64,000 nucleotides of DNA from Thermoplasmata archaeon. GTDB taxonomy: Archaea > Thermoplasmatota > Thermoplasmata > Lutacidiplasmatales > UBA184. This document shows positions 9,271-19,969 of the stretch, in pieces (positions within the stretch are counted from its first letter, which is position 1; each line of letters opens with the position of its first letter). The stretch lies in assembly GCA_049300255.1 (NCBI GenBank), contig JBAQJJ010000049.1, positions 43,920 to 107,919 of the forward strand, written 5' to 3'. Made by a program: the position numbers and the translations under genes. The notes under the pieces were generated by a model. That model was given only the letters and a program-made list of their open reading frames with translations. It had not been told where the DNA came from and made no database searches.

Positions 9271-10021
9271 GGTGGCGGCCCTAATGCCGGACTACTATGT
9301 ATAGCTGGCTTGATTCGTCAGTCCTGTAAGGTGCTCGCCCCTACGATAACTGCGGGTGGTCGGAACCGGACGCAGGTACAGGACCCATAGCCGACTCATG
9401 TCCGGGGCTGGAATTCCGATGCGCGCGTCGCTCACCGGACGTAGAATCGATGTGTGTGCTGAACACGTGACGGTCATGACTTCTGGGAGGGTTGGTACGT
9501 GCTGGGCCGATGAAACGTACCGGAGCTTCGAGCCCTCTCGTTCGGTCGTCCCAACGCGTCGGCCGGCGGCGGACGGGCCGCGCGGTGGGAGGGACGGCAA
9601 TCGCGAGCATGGAGAGTCCATAGGCAACGGATAGGATGATACCGAGAGAGAACTACGGAACGGTAAAGACCGTTAACCCGAAGGAGGCGGCCGCCGAGCC
9701 CTGGGCAATATTCCACCCGATGCGAAGGAGACGCCTATCCCATCATCGGAGTACGTGATGCGAGCGCTCGGAATTCGGAACGCGCGCCGAACACGTCGAG
9801 CCTGATTGCATCGGTTGTCGCTATCGCAGCGGGTGCCCTAGCACCCCTGGTCGGTCGGCCTGGCTTCAGGGCTCTTAGCCGGCGAGTACATTCTGCTCGG
9901 CGTCCGGTTGGATCGAACTCTCTCGGGCCGATGCCTTCGCCAACGACTCCTCGGCGCCCTAGGGTCCGAGCTCGTGTTCAATAGGGCGAGCGTATTCCGC
10001 ATTCAAAATTTGGAGGAGCGA

Positions 10022-10033
10022 GGAAAGCTTTCC
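10022..10033. promoter_or_regulatory. Perfect 12-bp palindrome GGAAAGCTTTCC in a long intergenic region upstream of a small ORF
   Basis: Read directly; it lies about 100 bp upstream of the ATG at 10137. Confidence 0.3.
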
Positions 10034-10136
10034 GGCTCGATTTCGACCCCTCCGCTGCGTGCTTCCCCCCCTTTTCGAGGTTCAAGCAAACGTTTCTCGG
10101 CGGCAGCTCACCTACGAGATTCGGGAGAAGCTAACA

Positions 10137-10325
10137 ATGGCTGTCTACACAAATGAAAGTGTGAACGACGCGCTACGTACGATGCGACGCTTCCAGCTTG
10201 ACGTTACCAACGCTATGGCTCAGAACCTGGAGAAGATCCAGCAGGCCACTCTCGGGCTCGTCCAAGAGTGTTTGGACGCGGCGGAAGAATTACGAATCGC
10301 TCTCGGACCCGGAGCTGCGAGCTAA
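10137..10325 (+). CDS. Small hypothetical alpha-helical protein (62 aa) with atypical, AT-ending codon usage
   Basis: GGAG 8 nt upstream of the ATG; codons such as aca, aat, agt, cta, ctt, gtt, tta are unlike neighbouring genes. Confidence 0.3.
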   Translation: MAVYTNESVNDALRTMRRFQLDVTNAMAQNLEKIQQATLGLVQECLDAAEELRIALGPGAAS

Positions 10326-10471
10326 TTTCTCGCATCGGAGCATTGGCCCTACACTGTCAGAACCAGCGCGAAGACGACGGCCTGGGGCAGAGGACCCGCC
10401 CGGACGCAGCCCCCGCGGCCCCGGGGGCACTTCGCACCGCGAGGGGCGCGCCGGTCGGTCTCCCAGGGAAT

Positions 10472-13400
10472 TCACGGCGGTGGAGGAGGAGTTCCCGGAA
10501 ATACCTCGGGCGGGGGTGATGGTCCCACAGGGCGAGGGGGCTCTTTGCGACGTAGCCGAAGTAGGGTCGCCACGATTCCGATGGCTACTACTGCAACGAT
10601 CGCGCCGAGTAGCGCATAGCCCTGGGCCAGAGGCAGACCGAGGAACTTTTGCGAGCCGGTCCCACCTGTGGAGGAGGAACTGAAGGTGATCGATTGGGAG
10701 GCAGCCTTTCCGTTCACAGTGATGGCACCGGCTCCCGGAGTTGCCAGGTACCCGGCAACGGCCCCCACGCTAAACGAGTAGGTGCCATTGGGCTCCATGT
10801 ACGTGATCAGCGAGACAATCGAACTGTTTGTTGTCATATTCAGTGTCAAACCCCAGGTCGTTCCGGAGGGCAGCCCCACCTCCAGGAAACTTACTGAGAA
10901 GACTGCCGAGAACCGAATGGTCTCGGCCAGGGCTTCCCCTGCCACCACGAAGCCCCCTCTCGCTAGAGTGGGCGCGTAGTGCGTGTTCGGCGACGCGGCC
11001 GAGTAAGAATAAGTCCCATTCTCCAGTGAGATGGCGGCGGTCGCGGAGGTTGAGGAAATGGAGGGCTCTCCGGAGACGTTCAGGTACCAATCCGCCCCCA
11101 GGGGAAGTCCGGTTTCAGTGAAGGTCACGGGATATGTCGCAAGTGTTGGGCTCGTGGTAAATGTAATCGGTTGAGAGATCGTCTTTCCGGTGACCGTCAC
11201 ATTTCCTGAATCCGGAATTGCCGAATATTCCGCCTCATGCCCAATATTGAACGGATAGGTGCCGTTTGGTTCCAAGAAAGATATCGAGGAGTTCGTCGAA
11301 CCTTCATTAGTCTGGTTCAACACCACCGACCATAATGATCCGGCAGGGAGTCCCGTCTCCGTGAAGGTCACATTGAACGCGGCGATTGAAGTCCTCTGCG
11401 AAATAATTGAGACCGTCCCCTGGAAAAAGTTCCCGACGTACATCTTTCCATTGGCCACATCATACGCGAAGGTATCCGGCTCGCCACCTACCGCAAGCGT
11501 GGCGATCACGGTGTTCGCCGTATCGTTGATGACGCTCAGATCGTTCGGAACTTCGTTTGCGACGAAGACCTGCCCCTCTCTGCCGTCGTAGCCCACTGCG
11601 TCCGAGCCGTTTCCTACTGAGACGCTCGTAAGCACTGTGTTCGTCCGGTCGCTAATGACGCTCAGATTACTCGAGCCCTCGTTCGCTACGAAGAGCTCCC
11701 CCTTCCCGCTATCGTACGCGATACCGTCGGGAAAGCTTCCTACCGCGACGGTGGCGATCACAGCGTTCGTGGTCGCGCTGATGACAGTCACGTTGCTCGA
11801 CTCGTCGTTCGCGACGAACGCCTCCGCCTTTTCGCTATCATAGGCGAGCGCAATGGGAGAATTGGTAGAGATAGTATCGACGACCGTCCTCATCGTATCG
11901 TTGATGACGCTCACATTGTTGGAATCGAAGTTCGCGACGAAGATCTCCCCCTTTTCACTATCATAGACGGCCGCTTCGGGACCACTCCCTACTGATACGT
12001 TGGCCACCACAAGGTTGGTCTCATCGTTAATCACACTCACGCTGTTCGAATAGAAATTCGCCACGAAGAGCTCCCCCTTCCCGCTATCGTACGCGATACC
12101 GTCGGGGGCGCTTCCGACCGCGACGGTCGCTACCTCGTTGTTCGTCGTATCATTAATGACGCTCACATTGTCCGATTCGTCGTTGGCGACAAATACCTCC
12201 CCCTTCCCGCTATCGTACGCAACAGCCCTGGGGCTCGCGCCCACCGCAACGGTCGCCACGACGGCGTTCGAGTCTGAGATTACGCTCAGCGAGTCCGAGA
12301 AATCATTTGCGACGAAGACCTCCCCCTTCGCATTATCATCCGCCATCCCGGTGGGATCGTTTCCCACATCGATGGGTGCCCCGACGACGTCCCCGACATC
12401 CGAGATCACGGTCACATTATTTGAGTTTGAATTGGCGACGAAAATCTCTCCCGCGTCCGCGTCAAAGGCGACGCCAGACGGGGTTTCCCCCACACCAACC
12501 GTCGCGACGACTGAGAAGGTCTCGTCGGAAATCAGACTGAGGTTATTCGTCCCTGAATCCGTAACGGCGACCTCGTTCTCTGCACTGACGTAGGCAACGG
12601 TCGAAGGGGAAGCTTGGACTTCGACGGTTTTTAGAATAGAGTCCGATAGACCTCCCAGTACGCTCACGTTGGCCGATCCCAGGTTCGCCACGAATAACTC
12701 CCCTTCCCCACTGTCATACGCGATGCCGTCGGGACCGTATCCGACCGAGACGAGAGCCACCTCGGAGTTATTCGAATCCGAAATCACCTCCACTTTGTTT
12801 GAGGCTGTTAGGGTCACGAAGATCGTGCCTTGTTCCGGGTCGTACGCGATTCCGCCCGAAGGGTTCCCAGCAGGAGAGCCAGCCAAGGAGATCGTCCTCA
12901 CTACAGTGTTCATCGTGTCGTTGATGACGGTCACGTTGTTTGATGCCCAATTGAAGACGAAGACCTCTCCCATCCCACCGTCGTAAGCGATACCGTAGGG
13001 CAAGTTTCCGACCGGGACGGTAGCGACCAGAGCGTTCGTCGAGTCGTTGATCACACTGACGCTGTTCGAGTATTCGTCCGCCGCAAAAATCTCCCCCTTC
13101 CCGCTGTCGTACGTGGCTGCCACAGGGCGCAGGCCATTACCCGATCGGAAGTTTCCTGGAACGAGCGTGTGGTTGAGCAATACCAGCGTCTCGGCCACAT
13201 AAGGTATCGACGCAGCCGGAATCTCTTGAGAGGGACTGATCGCATGTCGACCTGTCGGAGAGAGCCCAGACTGTGGAAGATGGGTCGAGGTCATGAGTCC
13301 TCCGCTCTCTTCCGATTGGTTCTCAAACGTAGAAGAAGTGCCGGCGGAAGAAGGCTGCGAGCGCGTAGCGGCATGAAGGAACCCTCCCAGGCTCACTCCG

Positions 13401-13483
13401 CCCATAACAAAAAGACAAGAAAATGCAATCGCGGCGAGGGACCAACCGCCGCCTCTTTTCAGATGAAATCTGAGGTTTTCCAT
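10472..13483 (-). CDS. Large surface protein built of YVTN-family beta-propeller repeats, with signal peptide, C-terminal TM anchor and Pro-rich tail (S-layer-like)
   Basis: 1003 aa. Repeating about 40-aa units (e.g. ...GIAYDSGKGELFVAN.. SNNVSVIND..), dozens of N-x-S/T sequons, N-terminal hydrophobic segment, C-terminal hydrophobic helix followed by RRKEPPRPVGPSPPPEVFPGTPPPPP. Confidence 0.85.
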   Translation of the reverse strand: MENLRFHLKRGGGWSLAAIAFSCLFVMGGVSLGGFLHAATRSQPSSAGTSSTFENQSEESGGLMTSTHLPQSGLSPTGRHAISPSQEIPAASIPYVAETLVLLNHTLVPGNFRSGNGLRPVAATYDSGKGEIFAADEYSNSVSVINDSTNALVATVPVGNLPYGIAYDGGMGEVFVFNWASNNVTVINDTMNTVVRTISLAGSPAGNPSGGIAYDPEQGTIFVTLTASNKVEVISDSNNSEVALVSVGYGPDGIAYDSGEGELFVANLGSANVSVLGGLSDSILKTVEVQASPSTVAYVSAENEVAVTDSGTNNLSLISDETFSVVATVGVGETPSGVAFDADAGEIFVANSNSNNVTVISDVGDVVGAPIDVGNDPTGMADDNAKGEVFVANDFSDSLSVISDSNAVVATVAVGASPRAVAYDSGKGEVFVANDESDNVSVINDTTNNEVATVAVGSAPDGIAYDSGKGELFVANFYSNSVSVINDETNLVVANVSVGSGPEAAVYDSEKGEIFVANFDSNNVSVINDTMRTVVDTISTNSPIALAYDSEKAEAFVANDESSNVTVISATTNAVIATVAVGSFPDGIAYDSGKGELFVANEGSSNLSVISDRTNTVLTSVSVGNGSDAVGYDGREGQVFVANEVPNDLSVINDTANTVIATLAVGGEPDTFAYDVANGKMYVGNFFQGTVSIISQRTSIAAFNVTFTETGLPAGSLWSVVLNQTNEGSTNSSISFLEPNGTYPFNIGHEAEYSAIPDSGNVTVTGKTISQPITFTTSPTLATYPVTFTETGLPLGADWYLNVSGEPSISSTSATAAISLENGTYSYSAASPNTHYAPTLARGGFVVAGEALAETIRFSAVFSVSFLEVGLPSGTTWGLTLNMTTNSSIVSLITYMEPNGTYSFSVGAVAGYLATPGAGAITVNGKAASQSITFSSSSTGGTGSQKFLGLPLAQGYALLGAIVAVVAIGIVATLLRLRRKEPPRPVGPSPPPEVFPGTPPPPP

Positions 13484-14242
13484 TAGAAGTAACTCCGAAG
13501 TCCGTGGGAAGCGCGAACGGGCGGGACGGGTTCAAGTCTATTCATTCTTCCTACCCTCCAACGGATCTCGAGGCGCCCTCCAGGCCGGCTGGAGCACGTG
13601 CAGTTCCCTTCGCTCGCTCCGAGAAGGAAACGCTAGCTGGTAGGCCTGACCGGGCTTCTGCCCCCGTCGAAATTTCGTCTCCTGCGACTGTTCGGAGTGA
13701 CTTCAAGCTGTCTTGGACCACCTCCTGTTGCCCCACCGAACCGCGGGAACCCGCGAGGACCCACGGCTTCACGCTCGACCCCGGGGCGCAGGTCAGTTCC
13801 CTTGGTCTGTCGATGCTGCTGATGCGAGACTGATTACTCAACAGCAGAAGGCGCTGCGCACGGATGCGCAGAACGCGCTACTCAGCGGTCCGATACTGCC
13901 CAGTCCTGTGCCCGTGGACTAGTTGTAGCTGTTCCGTGGCTCTGGACGCGAATATCTGGTGGCTTTCCGCGCGGTCAGAACGTAGGTGGATGGCCCACGT
14001 TGGGGTTTAGAGCGGTCGGGAAACTGTTTGGCTGGTTTGCGAGGGCATCAATGGGCAGAGGAAAGGGCGGTACTTGCGACCCGCCCCGAGCCGAATGCGA
14101 GGGGAAAATACGCCGTCCGTTCCCCTCATCCTGATTGGGGACACCGCCATCCCGAGGCCGTGAGTTCACTGCCGATCCCGCCGTCCCCTCAAGAGCAATT
14201 TAGCCGCTGGATCCAGCGTGAACTCGATCGAGGGATGTTGGC

Positions 14243-14515
14243 GTGACGGTCGCCTCGGTCGCGTTGTTCCTAATCATCGTCGCGACACTCGTCATTCAGG
14301 TCGCCCTTGTTTTCATCCTTTGGCTTTCGGTCTACCCCCTCGCGTCGGGGGCGACCGAAAAGACCATCGTTCTCGTCGCGATCTTCGGAGCGCTAGCCGT
14401 CTTCCTCGGAGAGCTAAGCACCGTGTTCTCGTCGAGCCTCGTCTACCTCTTTCTAACTCGATCTCGGTGCGGGAGACGGACGAAAATACTCGAGGATTCT
14501 AGTCAGGCCGACTGA
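14243..14515 (+). CDS. Small hypothetical membrane protein (2-3 TM)
   Basis: 90 aa, hydrophobic; lies in the lower-GC island. Confidence 0.3.
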   Translation: MTVASVALFLIIVATLVIQVALVFILWLSVYPLASGATEKTIVLVAIFGALAVFLGELSTVFSSSLVYLFLTRSRCGRRTKILEDSSQAD

Positions 14516-14529
14516 CGATGGAACCGTTG

Positions 14530-14817
14530 TCACGGTTTGAGGGCTTCGAAGCCCCTGCCCTCGGAACTTTCCAATCGACCCGCGTTCCCCCCCGGCCGTC
14601 TTTCGAACCACCCTATCCAGTAGCCGAAAAGCAACCCGGCCGCGCTCATAATAGCGAACCCGTAGATGATAACCAGCTCGTAGCCCGGGGCCGCGTAGCC
14701 CATGTATTCCGATGGGCCGTATTGGGCACTCAAAGTGGTACCCACGAAAATAGTCCCAAGTAAGCCCAACTCACAAAAAATCACGATGGCGGCGATGTAT
14801 GCTAGTCTCATAGTCAC
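14530..14817 (-). CDS. Small hypothetical membrane protein
   Basis: 95 aa, three hydrophobic helices; convergent with the preceding ORF. Confidence 0.3.
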   Translation of the reverse strand: MTMRLAYIAAIVIFCELGLLGTIFVGTTLSAQYGPSEYMGYAAPGYELVIIYGFAIMSAAGLLFGYWIGWFERRPGGNAGRLESSEGRGFEALKP

Positions 14818-15048
14818 ACGGCCGCGATCGATCTCGAGGTAACACCGATGACTTTCATCTTATTGTAAATTCGCACTTCTGATAGACGAAGACGTCTCGG
14901 CAGGATTCATACTTGCCGTAGTTCCCGGAACTGCCGGGTCTCGCTCCTCGACCTCGTCTGGTCGGCGCTCTAACGCGAGTTACGGTCGAATAAGAACAGT
15001 ATCGGTTACGGATACTATAAGTACGCCCGCGACCGTTACTCCGACCGG

Positions 15049-15537
15049 ATGCGGACCGATATCGACCCCGGGATCGTCGCGTTATTCGGCGGCGAGACGC
15101 GGGTCTTAACGCTCGCGGCGCTCGCGAACTCCGAGCGTCCTCTAACCGGGTACCGGGTAACGAAATTAACCGGGCTCCAGCCGACGAAAGTATACGACGA
15201 ACTCCGTCGCCTCGCGTCCGCCGAGGTCGTCCGTGCGTGGCCGGTCGATAACGGTCGAGCGAATAAAGTCTGGACGATCTCCGACCCGGATCTCCGCGCT
15301 TTCGTTCGGAAACGGGTTCGCCTGGTCTCGGCAGCGGAATGGGCGCGCGAGGTCGACGAACGCGTCCGCCGACGGAAACCGATCGCCTCGGGCGACCTCG
15401 GGATCGACCTCTCCCGGTATCGGGCGAACCCTAGCGCCGTTCCGAATCGGAGGGAGTTCGAACGCCCCGCCTCGAAAGACCGAGCACTCGCGTCGGCGGG
15501 GCTTAGGGTCTCTCGGCGAAAGAACCTCCGACGATGA
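15049..15537 (+). CDS. Winged-helix DNA-binding protein, putative antitoxin or regulator of the downstream nucleotidyltransferase
   Basis: N-terminal wHTH-like segment (RVLTLAALANSERPLTGYRVTKLTGLQPTKVYDELRRL). Its stop overlaps the next start (ATGA). Atypical codon usage (tta, ata, aaa). Confidence 0.5.
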   Translation: MRTDIDPGIVALFGGETRVLTLAALANSERPLTGYRVTKLTGLQPTKVYDELRRLASAEVVRAWPVDNGRANKVWTISDPDLRAFVRKRVRLVSAAEWAREVDERVRRRKPIASGDLGIDLSRYRANPSAVPNRREFERPASKDRALASAGLRVSRRKNLRR

Positions 15538-16091
15538 CGTCCGCCGAGGAGGTCGAACGGGTCCTCACGTCGGACCCGTCCCCCGACCAACGGATCCTAA
15601 ATTTCGCCGGGCTCCTCCAACGCGACAGCGGAAGCGAGGTCATCATCGTCGGGGGCTCGGCGATCGAGGTCCATAGCCGCGGAAAGTACCATTCCGACGA
15701 CCTCGACCTCCGAGGAGATCGGGAGGCCATCCGTCGCGTCCTCGCCCGCTGGGGGTTCCGAAACGCGGGTAAGATTTGGTTACGAGAGGACTGGAAGATC
15801 GCCGTCGACGTCGTCGGAACGAAATATACGGGCGATCCGTACCGGGCGGTCCGGGTCGAAACGAAATTCGGTCCCGTCCGCGTCGCCGTCGTCGAGGACC
15901 TAATCATTAAACGCCTTGCCGAAGCGAAGCATTGGAAAACGAAAAAGGCGATCCAGGAGGCCGCGGTCCTCTGGGCGGACTATCGGGACCGGATCGACTT
16001 CGAGTACCTTAACCGGCAGGCGCGGGAGTACGACGTCGTCGACCTCCTCGCCGATTTCCGCGAGCGGCTCGACGGGACCGTAAGCGACTAG
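15534..16091 (+). CDS. Minimal nucleotidyltransferase-fold protein (AbiEii/DUF1814-like or MNT-like), putative toxin
   Basis: Motif IIVGGSAIEVHSRGKYHSDDLDL matches the GS-x(9-13)-D-x-D nucleotidyltransferase signature. 185 aa, translationally coupled to the upstream wHTH gene. Confidence 0.5.
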   Translation: MTSAEEVERVLTSDPSPDQRILNFAGLLQRDSGSEVIIVGGSAIEVHSRGKYHSDDLDLRGDREAIRRVLARWGFRNAGKIWLREDWKIAVDVVGTKYTGDPYRAVRVETKFGPVRVAVVEDLIIKRLAEAKHWKTKKAIQEAAVLWADYRDRIDFEYLNRQAREYDVVDLLADFRERLDGTVSD

Positions 16092-16239
16092 CGTTCCCGT
16101 CGCCGCTGTCCCTTTACGACCTCGACCTTGCCTCGGCAGAATTCCACGACCTGTTCGATCCTCGTTTTACCCCGCTTTTCGTCACTATGAATGACCCGCT
16201 AGCGTTACAGTTCCCTTCTGGCCGAACGATTAAATATGG

Positions 16240-16284
16240 CTGACAGGACTCTTATGCGGCTGCTGACAACTGTCTGACAAACAG
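16240..16284 (+). promoter_or_regulatory. Triple CTGACA(A) repeat with an inverted-repeat arm (CTGT...ACAG) upstream of smc, preceded by an AT-rich TTAAATAT (16230-16237)
   Basis: Read directly: gCTGACAggactcttatgcggctGCTGACAActgtCTGACAAacag; about 55-100 nt upstream of the smc ATG. Confidence 0.3.
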
Positions 16285-16339
16285 CCTAGATCAGCGTGCG
16301 GGATCGAGAAACTACCCCTCCAGCGAGGATAATCTCTCC

Positions 16340-19300
16340 ATGTATCTCAAGCGGATCAAGGTTCGAAATTTCAAGTCATTCGCGGGTGCGACCGAACTGC
16401 CCTTTCAGCCGGGCTTTACGGGCGTCGCCGGCCCAAATGGGATGGGAAAATCCAACATCTCGGATTCGATCCTGTTCGTCCTCGGGCCGACCAGTTCGAA
16501 GGCACTGCGTGCCGATCGCTTGACTCACCTCTTCTTCAATGGGGGAGCCGCGAAGAAGCCGGCGACGGAATGTGAGGTGTCGTTGGTCTTCGACAATCAG
16601 GACCAGCTCCTTCCGGTCAATGCCGCCGAAGTGGAAATCACCCGATACGTGAAGCTCGCCCCGAGTGACCCAAATGGCTACTACTCCTACTTCTACGTGA
16701 ACGGAAAAAGGACCACCCAGACTGAGATTGACGCGATTCTGTCCCACGCCCGATTGTCGGGGGATGGCTACAATCTCGTCCAGCAAGGCGACGTCAACAA
16801 GGTCGTCAGTATGGGCCCCATTCCTCGACGGGGTCTGGTGGAACGGCTTGCCGGAATCAGCCAATACGACGAAGAACTCGAGCGGGCCGAAACCAAACGC
16901 ACGGACCTTGACACTAACTTGGACCGGATCAATACCCTGCTCACCGAGATACGAAATCGGATCTCGGCCCTCGAGTCCCAACGACTCCAAGCGATCCAGT
17001 ACCGGCAGATCCAAGAGGAAAAGCGCCGGGCCGAGGCCCAACTGGCCCGCGCTGGCCACGTACTCGCGCGCCAAGAGGTGACGACGTGCGAGACGCAGCT
17101 CGCCCAGCTCACCGCCGAGATCGAGAAGCTCAAGGCCGAAGCTGGGAAGCTGACCGAGGAGCGCGATTCCGCTGCGGAGGCGATTGACGCGGCCGAGAAG
17201 GAGATCGCTCGACAAGGCGGGGAATCCGCGGCGAAATTCAAGCTCGAGTTAGACGACAAGCGGCTGGCCTTTGCCAAGCTCGATCAGAATCTTCAGAGCC
17301 TCCAAGAGACCCTTCACGGACTGGACGATCGAATTCACGTTCTTTCGGAACAGGTCAAGGCCGACGAGAAGGACGCTCACAAATTCGAAGCTCAGGAAAG
17401 GACGCTCGCGAGCCAGCTCGAAGAGTTGGCACAGCAAGCGGAATCCCAGGCGCGCGACCTCAAGCGAGCAACAGGGGACGCGGAGCAGTCCCAAGGAAAG
17501 TTGGTCGGGACGCGGAAGCAAGTGCTCGAGCTCGAACGACAATACGAGCTCAAGCAGAAGGCCTGGCAAGAGATCGTCCAACGGCGTGAGAGCGCGAAGG
17601 CGTCGCTCGACGCAGCCGATCGAAGCCAAGCCCAGGCCGAGGAGGATCATCGCGACCGCGAGCTCGAACTCAAGGATCTCGAACTCAGGATCAAGCAGTC
17701 GGGGGCGGGGCCCAAGGGCGTCCAAGTTCGCACCGCTGACCTCCAGAAGGAGCTCCAGCAACTGAAGACGCAGGAGAAGGAACTGACGGCGAGCACGGAC
17801 CGCCTCGCCCAAGAGGTGGCCGAGCTCAATCGTCGGTACCTCGCGCTCGATGCACGGCTGAAAGCCCGCGCGGAGAGCGGAAGCCGGGCGACGCCGATGG
17901 CCGCAGTCGATTTCTTGCTTTCGCAACGGAACCTGGGCAAACTCCCCGGCATCCGCGGGACCGTCGAGGAGTTGGCCCAGTTCGACGCGAAATTTCAGAC
18001 CGCGCTCAATGTTGCCGGTGGAAGTCGTTTCCAAGCGTTGGTCGTGGAAACCGACCAAGTCGCGGAGGAGTGCATCAAACTGCTCAAGGCCGAGAAGCGG
18101 GGACGCGCGACGTTCCTCCCGCTCAACAAGATGTTACCGGGTCGCCCTCATGGAAAGGCACTCATCGCATCGCAGACTGCCGGCACCCAAGGTTTCGCCT
18201 TGGATTGCGTCCACTTTGACGAATCTCTACGCCCCGCCTTCTGGTACGTGTTTGGCGAGACGGTCATCATGGACGATCTCGGCCACGCGCGTGCGCAGAT
18301 GGGCGGAGTTCGTCTCGTCACCCTGGGAGGCGACCTGATAGAAGCCACAGGCGCCATTTCGGGAGGCTATCTCGAGACGGGCGAGAAGGGCCGGGGCGGC
18401 GATACTGGCGTCGAACTCAAACGGCTAGGCGAAGAGTTGCGAACCAAAAGCGCGGCGGAAAGCACCGCTCGCCAGTCTCTCCAAAAGGCTCTCGAACGCA
18501 TCCGGGGACTGGGTGAAGAACTCACCAAACGCTCGGTCGAAGACGAGGCGCATCGATCGACTCGGGATCTCCTGGACGGCGACCTCACTTCCGCTCGGGA
18601 TCGACTGACGGAAGCGAAGGATCGGGTCGACTCGGTCTTGGCGGCCCGCATCAAGGCCGAAACTGCCTATCAGAAAGCTAACGTCGAGGCGGACTCCTCG
18701 GCCAATGAGCTCACCCGATTGAAAGAGCAACTATCGAAGATCCACGAGGAGTACCTGGGCCATCTTCCGGGTGCTCTCTCGGCTCGCCTGCGAGAATTGC
18801 AAGAGGCAAGCCAGACCACCGCGGACGCCCGCGTCAAGCTCAATGGAGAATTGGAGTCGGTGCGGGCGTCGCTCGCGGCGTTGCTGCAGAATCTCACGAC
18901 CCACCGTAGTGAAGTAGGCGAGGCCAAGCAACAGTCTGCCGAAAAGCGAAAGGAGCTCCAGGCCGTCACCAAAGGGCGCGACGGGGCGAAGGAAGCGCTG
19001 GAAGCACTCAAGACAGTCGAGTCCCAGCAATCCGAGACGGTCAAGGCCGCGACGGAGAAGAAGCGCAAGCTGGACGCGGAGCGCCTCAAGATCGTCGAAA
19101 AGCTGGCGCGGGCTGAGACGCAGATCAGCGGACGACAGACGATGCTCGACCAGGAGCAAATCCGCCTCGCTACCGCGCAACAACGTCTCGCCGAAGTTGA
19201 AGCGGCCCTCAAGGAGTTCCCGGAGCCGGCGGCGGACGAGAAACCGATCGCCGTCGACGAGCTCAAACGCACGATCACCACCCTCGGCGCCCAACTCGAC

Positions 19301-19969
19301 TCGATGGGATCCGTCAACCAGCGCGCGCTCGAAGAATACGATCAGGAGAAGCGACGGCTCGACGAATTCCAGTCCGAGGCGGAGCGTCTCTCGTCCGAGA
19401 AGAAGGAACTGCTGGGCCTCGTGGGCGAGATCGAGAAGAAGAAACGCGAGAAGATCGGACAAGTCGTGGTCGCGGTCAACGTAGCCTTCAAGGAAATCTA
19501 CGGGGAGCTCTCGGGAGGCGGCATCGGAGAAATCGCCCTCGAATCACCGCAGGATCCCTTGGCCGGCGGGCTGCTGATCCGAGCCAGTCCGGTCGGGAAG
19601 ACCGTCGAACGGCTCGAACAGTTGAGTGGCGGCGAGAAGTCGCTCGCCAGCTTGGCATTCATCTTCTCGCTCCAGCGATACGACCCAAGTCCGCTCTATG
19701 TGTTCGACGAGGTGGATATGTCGCTCGATGGCCTCAATGCGGAGAACGTCGGCCGCATGTTGCGGCGCAATTCCGAACGCGCCCAATTCATCGTGATCTC
19801 GCTCCGGAAGGTGACCCTGAAGTTCGCCCATCGACTCTTCGGCGTTACGATGCACGGAGATGGATGCTCACGGGTCGTCGGACTCAACCTCGACGAGATC
19901 GTCGACATCGACGAACGAGACCGGCTGACCCCCACCGCCGCGGCTCCAACTCCCTTGGAGGCCCGATGA
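16340..19969 (+). CDS. smc: Chromosome segregation protein SMC
   Basis: 1209 aa. N-terminal Walker A (GPNGMGKSNI), long coiled coils, hinge, C-terminal signature LSGGEKSLASLAFIFSL and Walker B LYVFDEVD. Confidence 0.95.
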   Translation: MYLKRIKVRNFKSFAGATELPFQPGFTGVAGPNGMGKSNISDSILFVLGPTSSKALRADRLTHLFFNGGAAKKPATECEVSLVFDNQDQLLPVNAAEVEITRYVKLAPSDPNGYYSYFYVNGKRTTQTEIDAILSHARLSGDGYNLVQQGDVNKVVSMGPIPRRGLVERLAGISQYDEELERAETKRTDLDTNLDRINTLLTEIRNRISALESQRLQAIQYRQIQEEKRRAEAQLARAGHVLARQEVTTCETQLAQLTAEIEKLKAEAGKLTEERDSAAEAIDAAEKEIARQGGESAAKFKLELDDKRLAFAKLDQNLQSLQETLHGLDDRIHVLSEQVKADEKDAHKFEAQERTLASQLEELAQQAESQARDLKRATGDAEQSQGKLVGTRKQVLELERQYELKQKAWQEIVQRRESAKASLDAADRSQAQAEEDHRDRELELKDLELRIKQSGAGPKGVQVRTADLQKELQQLKTQEKELTASTDRLAQEVAELNRRYLALDARLKARAESGSRATPMAAVDFLLSQRNLGKLPGIRGTVEELAQFDAKFQTALNVAGGSRFQALVVETDQVAEECIKLLKAEKRGRATFLPLNKMLPGRPHGKALIASQTAGTQGFALDCVHFDESLRPAFWYVFGETVIMDDLGHARAQMGGVRLVTLGGDLIEATGAISGGYLETGEKGRGGDTGVELKRLGEELRTKSAAESTARQSLQKALERIRGLGEELTKRSVEDEAHRSTRDLLDGDLTSARDRLTEAKDRVDSVLAARIKAETAYQKANVEADSSANELTRLKEQLSKIHEEYLGHLPGALSARLRELQEASQTTADARVKLNGELESVRASLAALLQNLTTHRSEVGEAKQQSAEKRKELQAVTKGRDGAKEALEALKTVESQQSETVKAATEKKRKLDAERLKIVEKLARAETQISGRQTMLDQEQIRLATAQQRLAEVEAALKEFPEPAADEKPIAVDELKRTITTLGAQLDSMGSVNQRALEEYDQEKRRLDEFQSEAERLSSEKKELLGLVGEIEKKKREKIGQVVVAVNVAFKEIYGELSGGGIGEIALESPQDPLAGGLLIRASPVGKTVERLEQLSGGEKSLASLAFIFSLQRYDPSPLYVFDEVDMSLDGLNAENVGRMLRRNSERAQFIVISLRKVTLKFAHRLFGVTMHGDGCSRVVGLNLDEIVDIDERDRLTPTAAAPTPLEAR

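Follow-up and report, generated by a model that had tools for sequence, protein, structure and literature searches.

A DUF6036-type nucleotidyltransferase and its winged-helix partner as a candidate mobile toxin–antitoxin-type cassette upstream of smc in a Thermoplasmata archaeon

In a Thermoplasmata archaeon, two small coupled genes lie in the region that separates the smc–scpAB operon from a gene for a surface beta-propeller protein, and the question they raise is whether they form an acquired unit and, if so, of what kind. The DNA analysed here, the window, is a stretch of 64,000 nucleotides (contig JBAQJJ010000049.1, positions 43,920 to 107,919, assembly GCA_049300255.1) from a metagenome-assembled genome (MAG); positions below count from its first letter. 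The first gene (15049–15537, plus strand) encodes a 162-residue winged-helix-turn-helix (wHTH) protein, the predicted antitoxin and autorepressor, and the second (15534–16091, plus strand) a 185-residue nucleotidyltransferase (NTase) of polymerase-beta (pol-beta) fold, the predicted toxin; the stop codon of the former and the start codon of the latter overlap as ATGA. Both proteins are identical (100%) to NCBI entries WAN87_00110 and WAN87_00115, and the list of open reading frames (ORFs) and the gene calls bore out the layout, overlap included, that a first-pass annotation of the letters alone had given. We argue that the core of the locus (~14.98–16.2 kb) is probably a horizontally mobile toxin–antitoxin-type cassette in which the NTase would be the toxin and the wHTH protein the antitoxin, a reading that we hold with rather more confidence than doubt.

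The assignment of the second protein as an NTase was confirmed by family, fold and motif. Pfam DUF6036 (PF19502) matched residues 27–167 on profile positions 13–137 of 164 with 24.4 bits (E = 2.8e-5; gathering threshold 23.6 bits), and the same family was matched by 37/50 relatives (E ≤ 0.1; best relative E = 4.3e-7). DUF2204 gave a faint match. Given the marginal DUF6036 score, the protein appears to represent a divergent subfamily. The AlphaFold2 model is confident (pLDDT 93.8, pTM 0.89) and has the alpha-beta-alpha-beta-alpha-beta core of pol-beta NTases, the hG[GS]-x9-13-DhD motif and a third carboxylate on a later strand; a helical C-terminal domain is also present. The catalytic motif is intact and reads G41-S42-x13-D56-x-D58, and D92 is probably the third carboxylate; the spacing of x11 read initially was in error. 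No match to NTP_transf_2 was obtained with the NTase or its relatives (Pfam), and an NCBIfam scan gave no meaningful match.

Conservation in the family is concentrated at G41, S42, S54, D56, D58, D92, E121-D122, K126-R127, K132-H133-W134 and D155. Position 54, in the pattern [S/T]-x-D-x-D, is Ser or Thr in 140/141 broad representatives (48 Ser and one Thr among 50 close relatives), and D56, D58, E121, D122, R127 and D155 are each at least 90% conserved across 148 representatives. Several of these residues lie on a conserved helix, E121-D122-L-I-I-K126-R127-L-A-x-A-K132-H-W134; further on, the window NTase reads R151-D-R-I-D155, where conservation is limited to D155. The basic helix residues K126/R127/K132 and the near-invariant D155 recall, as a sequence pattern, motifs III and IV of DUF1814 (PMC3985639). 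Motif III has Lys/Arg in a hydrophobic helix (KLxAaxxR-like), motif IV reads +DxxD, and both line the active site.

The first protein is very basic (isoelectric point, pI, 11.4) and was assigned by profile comparison as an ArsR/MarR/TrmB-like wHTH protein, in agreement with its earlier description: Pfam TrmB matched it with 18.4 bits, below the cut-off, and matched 19/31 of its relatives. PADLOC returned only a weak Csa3-wHTH match. The C-terminal 70 residues, with an Arg-rich tail of pI 11.9, had no match among solved structures, and their predicted helices are all short. Alignment of wHTH relatives defined a tail motif, E-F-x-R-P-x2-K-D-x2-L-x3-G-L-R-x-S-R, at residues ~136–156.

This tail is kept when the DNA-binding head is exchanged. 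In a divergent Thermoplasmata subclade, the wHTH gene is replaced by a gene for a 95–98-residue CxxC...CxxC zinc-ribbon protein, which lies upstream of and overlaps the NTase gene (L065:4715-5002, L066:1372-1668 and L068:4715-5011; L-numbers denote loci). The zinc-ribbon C-terminus aligned with the wHTH tail over 34 columns (hhalign E = 4.4e-5), the common motif being F-x-R-x3-KD-x2-L-x3-G-[LM]-R-x-S. Type II antitoxins are classically built in this way, from an exchangeable DNA-binding head and a constant toxin-binding tail. Because the tail is kept while the head is swapped, these alignments suggest that it is an enzyme-binding element.

Bacterial relatives may use another kind of partner, which lacks a head and is encoded after the NTase gene. 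In Verrucomicrobiota loci (L069–L088, e.g. L077:5551-5760), a well-conserved ORF of ~70 residues with the consensus ...SYEDWLKGRRxRRE...SSSDRRLKKLFNGERGLPFTPTEKL overlaps the NTase 3' end, and on Nitratidesulfovibrio plasmid pDVUL01 (L118:3003-3239) a divergent 78-residue ORF begins 8 nt past the NTase gene. No Pfam match and no recognisable DNA-binding domain was found in these short ORFs. Kinship of the ~70-residue protein with the archaeal wHTH protein was considered and rejected (hhalign E = 0.088, not significant).

The promoter of the pair (14977–15041, plus strand) has the features of an operator. A repeat search found a palindrome, AGTATC-N7-GATACT, at 14998–15016, which abuts or overlaps a TATA-like box (TATAAGTA, 15015–15022) and is flanked on both sides by the arms of an outer 12-nt inverted repeat (GAGTTACGGTCG at 14977–14988, CGACCGTTACTC at 15030–15041). 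The wHTH ATG lies ~27 nt past the TATA-like box; the mRNA is therefore probably leaderless or short-leadered. Perfect palindromes whose arms reach 6 bp or more, located at –70 to –1 relative to the wHTH start, were found in 30/58 distinct homologous loci, compared to 7.0 ± 2.4 (maximum 15) in dinucleotide shuffles, and most of the remaining loci have imperfect, one-mismatch palindromes. They usually overlap a TATA-like sequence, and their half-sites vary with subclade (GTATCC/GGATAC, TTAGTCA/TGACTAA, TTACCC/GGGTAA). This pattern is as expected for a dimeric autorepressor and its operator, with the wHTH protein as the presumed ligand. The heptamer GTTACGG was also tried as an operator word and rejected in favour of the palindrome, as it is not enriched (8 occurrences in the window vs 5.5 ± 2.5).

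We asked how widely the pair occurs and in what company. Near homologues of both proteins were found only in Thermoplasmata MAGs and in soil or peat metagenomes. With one genome per GTDB species, 227 relatives were recovered, mostly from Thermoplasmata with some from Nitrososphaerota and the farthest from Verrucomicrobiota. When 1.84 billion representatives were searched with a profile, 1394 clusters at 50% identity matched (E ≤ 1e-3; 599 at E ≤ 1e-10), almost all of them stand-alone proteins of ~190 residues; these ~1,400 clusters of DUF6036-type proteins would belong mainly to uncultured members of the Thermoplasmata and Nitrososphaerota, and their relatives in bacteria and on plasmids are distant. 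Hidden Markov model scans of all ORFs in the loci placed a wHTH gene of this kind (A2-type) directly upstream of 53/59 distinct archaeal NTase genes; 36 junctions have a 4-nt NTGA overlap and 9 another overlap of 1–14 nt, and in the others the genes are no more than 16 nt apart.

Outside the pair, the genes vary from locus to locus. Seven contexts were examined and had no conserved neighbours: VapBC, ParE, MazE and an OLD nuclease, forming a toxin–antitoxin island (L001); alcohol dehydrogenase and a hydrolase (L002); an integrase and a major facilitator superfamily (MFS) transporter (L004); gatDE and ribosomal protein L11 (L114); Kelch propeller proteins (L115); a DNA methylase and a PRiA4_ORF3 protein (L116); and ABC and MFS transporters (L117). 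On the 115-kb contig CAVVLX010000003.1 there are four copies of the pair, three within 6 kb (L001) and a fourth at L028; the three at L001 (1–12549), one of them truncated, lie among three PIN/VapC genes, VapB, MazE-like and ParE-like genes and the OLD-family nuclease gene. Other genomes have two or three copies, and frameshifted or truncated copies were seen at L013, L040, L019, L001 and L018. In its genomic behaviour the pair resembles a self-contained, mobile, multi-copy cassette of two genes, and thereby toxin–antitoxin modules, with the conserved pairing, patchy spread, variable context, multiple copies and decay that are the general genomic marks of such modules. Distant NTase relatives also occur on bacterial plasmids. 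One, on Acidiphilium cryptum pACRY04 (L119, 2438–3004; 29% identity, E = 6e-4), directly follows repC in the parA–RHH (ribbon-helix-helix)–repC maintenance region of this conjugative plasmid. Plasmid-addiction modules are typical of plasmid maintenance regions.

Comparison with relatives that share the smc neighbourhood indicated how the pair came to lie here. Upstream of smc in 18 metagenomic syntenic relatives (SMC identity 61–68% over the full length; one with 88% over the N-terminus), there is no homologue of the wHTH protein, of the NTase or of any other ORF between the beta-propeller gene and smc, and DNA similarity to the window begins at ~16207 (blastn and alignment). Because the pair is absent from all 18 and homology resumes at 16207, we read the cassette as a lineage-specific insertion into a variable spot. 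Its right-hand limit is set by the ancestral smc promoter and leader (16207–16339, plus strand), which lies outside the cassette. The 3' flank (16092–16206) is lineage-specific and still CpG-rich like the cassette, as judged by blastn and alignment against the 18 loci and by the CpG profile. At the position of the cassette, the nearest smc relative (L105:920-2215; the one with 88% identity over the SMC N-terminus) has an insertion-sequence-like transposase ORF of 431 residues with a zinc finger and a DDE-like region, a sign that insertion upstream of smc may be recurrent. In another syntenic relative, smc is immediately preceded by a YVTN-like gene.

Terminal repeats around the inserted segment were short and at chance level, and no target-site duplication was found. 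A 13-nt imperfect inverted repeat (AACGCTAGCTGGT at 13629–13641 and ACCCGCTAGCGTT at 16194–16206), whose right arm ends at the 16207 breakpoint, is probably due to chance; 14 inverted repeats of like size occur in the same 3.1 kb. As first noted, there is no integrase and no flanking tRNA gene: no tRNA or transfer-messenger RNA (tmRNA) gene was found in the 64-kb window, no integrase was found, and the genes upstream of the locus are metabolic (Pfam).

The first-pass annotation had taken the segment for a compositionally atypical island of visibly lower GC content. This was refuted for GC content: the wHTH and NTase genes have GC of 0.650 and 0.629, against 0.6205 for the window, and only the intergenic spacers dip, to 0.51–0.57. 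GC at third codon positions (GC3) is 0.736 in the wHTH gene and 0.801 in the NTase gene, the top value among 37 long ORFs, and in synonymous-codon likelihood neither gene falls below the range of 31 reference genes. A low-GC island was rejected on these values, all typical or above typical. Of the codons named there as rare in neighbouring genes, AAA is indeed enriched in both genes (37 per 1000 codons in the wHTH gene and 27 in the NTase gene vs 6.9) and TTA in the wHTH gene (18 vs 2.3), whereas ATA occurs in neither gene and AAT shows no enrichment. The atypical composition itself stood, as a dinucleotide anomaly of 14818–16206. The signature distance of this segment, 188.6, is the most deviant of the window (other 1.4-kb tiles 69.9 ± 29.5, maximum 166.9), and its observed/expected CpG ratio is 1.67 vs 1.28 ± 0.16 for the window. 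CpG exceeds that of the flanks in 11/14 homologous loci, but more weakly than here; part of the anomaly is intrinsic to this Arg-rich gene family.

We base the proposed reading on gene structure, fold, motif conservation, pairing, promoter palindromes, variable context, the multi-copy state and its decay, and absence from syntenic relatives; toxicity, substrate, DNA binding, tail–enzyme contact and phosphorylation we only infer. On the mechanism envisaged, the cassette would have been inserted between the surface beta-propeller gene and the smc–scpAB operon, and the DUF6036 NTase would stop growth by nucleotidylating an essential RNA, an expectation that we draw because its fold and active-site layout resemble those of MenT and AbiEii toxins. 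By analogy, tRNA 3' ends would be the likeliest target. The wHTH protein, probably a dimer, would bind the TATA-box palindrome and repress its own promoter, and would neutralise the NTase through its conserved C-terminal tail, either by occluding the active site or by provoking autophosphorylation of S54 as in the MenA and AbiEi systems.

Several observations weigh against the toxin–antitoxin reading. DUF6036 membership is marginal, 0.8 bit over the cut-off. AbiEii/DUF1814 (PF08843) matched neither the NTase (E ≤ 1) nor any of its 50 relatives (E ≤ 0.1), no PADLOC defence model matched the NTase, those for AbiE included, and profile searches of the PDB with a 50- or a 148-sequence profile recovered no solved structure, MenT chains included. 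The proposed equivalence to motifs III and IV is a matter of sequence pattern, not of superposition, and the proposed contact between tail and enzyme draws on co-conservation only. Structurally, the NTase is just as close to antibiotic nucleotidyltransferases. The charge pattern is odd: with a pI of 6.0 the presumed toxin is slightly acidic, and the presumed antitoxin is strongly basic. The cassette lies beside housekeeping genes here and not in a defence island. No relative was found among viral contigs (IMG/VR), on which ground a viral origin was also rejected.

Some of these points would suit a repressor-controlled modifying enzyme, acting on an antibiotic, a metabolite or another non-toxic target and carried as a mobile resistance or stress cassette. 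The mildly acidic NTase can be counted for this explanation, as can the frequent control of resistance genes by ArsR/MarR-type repressors. ANT(2'')-Ia and LnuA, the resistance enzymes compared, share 11–18% identity with the NTase; their genes are not known to be coupled to one for a DNA-binding partner. Unlike resistance genes, the pair is multi-copy, decaying and found in a toxin–antitoxin island, and divergent copies in one genome among VapBC, ParE and MazE, with frequent decay, would be unexpected for a resistance gene. The 4-nt overlap and the retention of the tail across different heads point to a relation between the two proteins themselves, and the invariant [S/T]-x-D-x-D fits the regulatory site of MenT. 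The same ambiguity was met for mobile NTase pairs by Makarova et al. 2009 (PMC2701414). We regard a regulated enzyme as the main rival, and as unlikely.

The pair might also be a two-subunit nucleic-acid-modifying enzyme, in which the basic wHTH protein recruits a DNA or RNA substrate and inhibits nothing. Strict co-occurrence and translational coupling are equally natural for two subunits, the high pI of the partner and of its tail would serve substrate binding, and the heads exchanged above the kept tail, wHTH and zinc ribbon, are both of nucleic-acid-binding type. However, palindromes at the TATA box suit autorepression better than substrate delivery, variation in copy number, decay and location in a toxin–antitoxin island suit selfish modules, and the bacterial ~70-residue partner has no recognisable head with which to recruit DNA. 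Such an enzyme is thus improbable, and the toxin–antitoxin cassette is retained as the preferred reading.

What, then, of the remainder of the region upstream of the pair? The YVTN/NHL beta-propeller gene (10472–13483, minus strand; Pfam), which encodes a surface protein, is followed by 759 bp without a called gene (13484–14242), the gap, which is the upstream region of that gene and lies outside the cassette. Next come two hydrophobic ORFs, TM1 (14243–14515, plus strand, 90 residues, NCBI WAN87_00105) and TM2 (14530–14817, minus strand, 93–95 residues), which converge 14 nt apart; TM2 diverges from the cassette promoter and is separated from the wHTH gene by a 231-bp spacer. Both have 2–3 Kyte–Doolittle peaks and coding-like GC3, and TM1 forms a singleton cluster. 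TM1, TM2 and the pair were called in three independent assemblies of the organism, and the gap was without calls in all of them.

The absence of a credible ORF from the gap was upheld by the gene callers, by a collection of 15 billion proteins, in which its ORFs are absent, and by six-frame translation; tblastn against the smc-syntenic relatives also gave no match. GC phase is flat across 13471–13800. Weak minus-strand codon periodicity was detected over 13651–14250 (GC at first, second and third codon positions ~0.63, ~0.52 and ~0.71), in a frame that holds five stops and gives no protein-like sequence. A hidden gene or pseudogene was rejected in the lack of a convincing frame; decayed sequence or a gene remnant may nevertheless be present. 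The hairpins reported from the gap exist as named, but their number is at chance level: eight perfect 6-bp stems compared to 4.7 ± 2.9 in shuffled sequence, with eight or more in 32% of windows of the same size. Folding minimum free energy z-scores of the gap are unremarkable. At its gathering threshold Rfam matched nothing anywhere in the 64 kb, and at E ≤ 1 a scan of 13300–16450 yielded noise only. No RNA gene that would explain the gap was found; a noncoding RNA there was rejected on these results and on the lack of a tRNA or tmRNA.

The gap, its hairpins, TM1 and TM2 lie next to the cassette but do not belong to it, because none recurs beside homologous pairs in the contexts examined. It is accordingly very improbable that the whole of 13.5–16.3 kb was acquired as one island, with the gap as a noncoding RNA or structured regulatory region of that unit: the absence of every feature upstream of smc in the 18 relatives and the inverted repeat ending at the breakpoint are what such an island would leave, but the gap and TM1/TM2 never accompany homologous cassettes, the dinucleotide signatures differ (CpG ratio 1.02 in the gap, 1.36 in TM1–TM2, 1.67 in the cassette), Rfam was negative, hairpins and folding energy were at chance, similar inverted repeats are common, and target-site duplication, integrase and tRNA are all lacking.

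Two further observations concern the flanking genes. Ahead of smc (16340–19969, with scpA and scpB following), a TATA box (TTAAATAT, 16231–16238) is followed by a ~50-nt element conserved in 18/18 relatives. The whole (16228–16285; ~60–115 nt before smc in L089–L106) reads TTAAATAT then GGC[TG]GACAGG...GCTGCTGACA[AT]C[CT]GTC[CT]GACAAAC[GA]G, with three TGACA-like repeats and a 4-bp hairpin that has one covarying pair (CG 12, UA 4, UG 3). It may be a regulator-binding site or a 5'-leader structure for the smc–scpAB operon. On the other side, ~1.2 kb downstream of the YVTN gene (9271–10471) has no long ORF clear of the neighbouring genes, the longest (161 residues, 10198–10683) overlapping the YVTN gene on the opposite strand, and no Rfam match.

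If the toxin–antitoxin reading is correct, a Pfam family of ~1,400 clusters, so far without an assigned function, would gain a function and a testable mechanism, and the MenT/AbiEii toxins would gain an archaeal, sequence-unrelated branch. Through the conserved [S/T]-x-D-x-D site, the generality of antitoxin-induced autophosphorylation beyond DUF1814 becomes directly testable, and an enzyme of 185 residues with a conserved partner peptide of ~25 residues offers a compact model of toxin control. For genome annotation, the smc upstream region of this lineage appears to have been hit repeatedly by insertions. If the reading is wrong, the locus is an ordinary regulator–enzyme pair. Going further, one could propose that DUF6036-type proteins are a large unrecognised branch of MenT/AbiEii-like NTase toxins, whose antitoxins have swappable heads and one shared inhibitory C-terminal peptide that possibly triggers Ser/Thr autophosphorylation. 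'Type VII' antitoxin-induced autophosphorylation would in that case reach archaea and a family unlike DUF1814 in sequence; we offer this proposal tentatively, and doubt it more than we believe it.

Comparison with known systems places the pair near, and outside, several of them. The first-pass annotation had likened it to AbiEi/AbiEii and MNT-type modules. In HEPN–MNT systems, the HEPN protein is as a general rule the toxin. These systems (COG1708/COG1669 with COG2250/2361/2445) are likewise mobile gene pairs that include a small pol-beta NTase, but the NTase here is longer than an MNT (under ~150 residues), has a helical C-terminal domain and finds no NTP_transf_2 match, and no HEPN partner is present, neither protein nor any relative being matched by a HEPN family (Pfam); the MNT likeness therefore fails. 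Mobile MNT modules with a small pol-beta NTase are abundant in archaea (PMC2701414), and in Shewanella SO_3166 the HEPN RNase is the toxin (PMC4621449).

The resemblance to the abortive-infection and type IV–VII toxin–antitoxin systems of AbiE kind (COG5340–COG2253, including the archaeal PygAT) is one of organisation. In both, a wHTH autorepressor gene (predicted here) precedes the NTase gene in one operon, pol-beta motifs I and II are present, and the promoter has inverted repeats, which AbiEi binds in that system (PMC3985639). Partner gene first, joined by ATGA (a 4-nt overlap in 36/59 loci), and a promoter palindrome are the marks of AbiE and type II-like operons, in which the partner would act as repressor here too. 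The differences are substantial. AbiEii is far larger (its MenT3/MenT4 homologues have 290–292 residues), has a motif I–II spacing of x15 and a +DxxD motif IV, where the present NTase has x13 and only the last Asp of the pentad conserved; AbiEi has a folded C-terminal domain, and the 162-residue partner has none that matches a known structure. At the sequence level there is no membership of AbiEi/AbiEii: DUF1814 matched 0/50 NTase relatives, AbiEi/COG5340 0/31 wHTH relatives (Pfam), and PADLOC gave no AbiE.

MenAT is the other close parallel. In MenT toxins, the antitoxin induces autophosphorylation on a Ser or Thr two residues before the first catalytic Asp (T39 in MenT1, S78 in MenT3), a residue strictly conserved in COG2253 and COG4849 (PMC10435456, PMC11375011), and AbiEii is reported to autophosphorylate likewise (bioRxiv 10.64898/2026.01.19.700257). 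S54-x-D56-x-D58 has the geometry of MenT1 T39-x-D41-x-D43 and MenT3 S78-x-D80, and would be the corresponding phosphorylation site. Lys and Asp residues of the C-terminal helices, essential in MenT1 (K137, D152), have possible counterparts in the conserved K126/R127/K132 and D155. As in MenA1–MenT1 of Mycobacterium tuberculosis (Rv0078B/Rv0078A; PDB 8an4, 8an5), the antitoxin gene is upstream and the operon bicistronic. The ~70-residue partner of the bacterial DUF6036-like relatives recalls the 68-residue MenA1, but its gene is downstream of that for the NTase. tRNA modification and autophosphorylation have been demonstrated for MenT (PMC10435456, PMC11375011) and would here be shared by analogy. 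What differs from MenAT is the partner, which here combines a wHTH head with an unrelated tail, and the host, which is an archaeon.

DUF6036 itself is described in Pfam as a 'nucleotidyltransferase of unknown function', with DUF2204/TM1012 (PDB 2ewr) as a neighbouring family. In the literature searched, neither DUF6036 nor a wHTH–NTase pairing of this type is mentioned, and no published description was found of the wHTH pairing, the promoter palindrome, the Ser/Thr site or the shared tail for DUF6036; the suggestion that the pair is an undescribed minimal variant is thus a reasonable one. An NTase toxin with a DNA-binding antitoxin, as proposed here, would be of a well-known kind; the toxin family, the architecture of the partner and the archaeal setting would be new.

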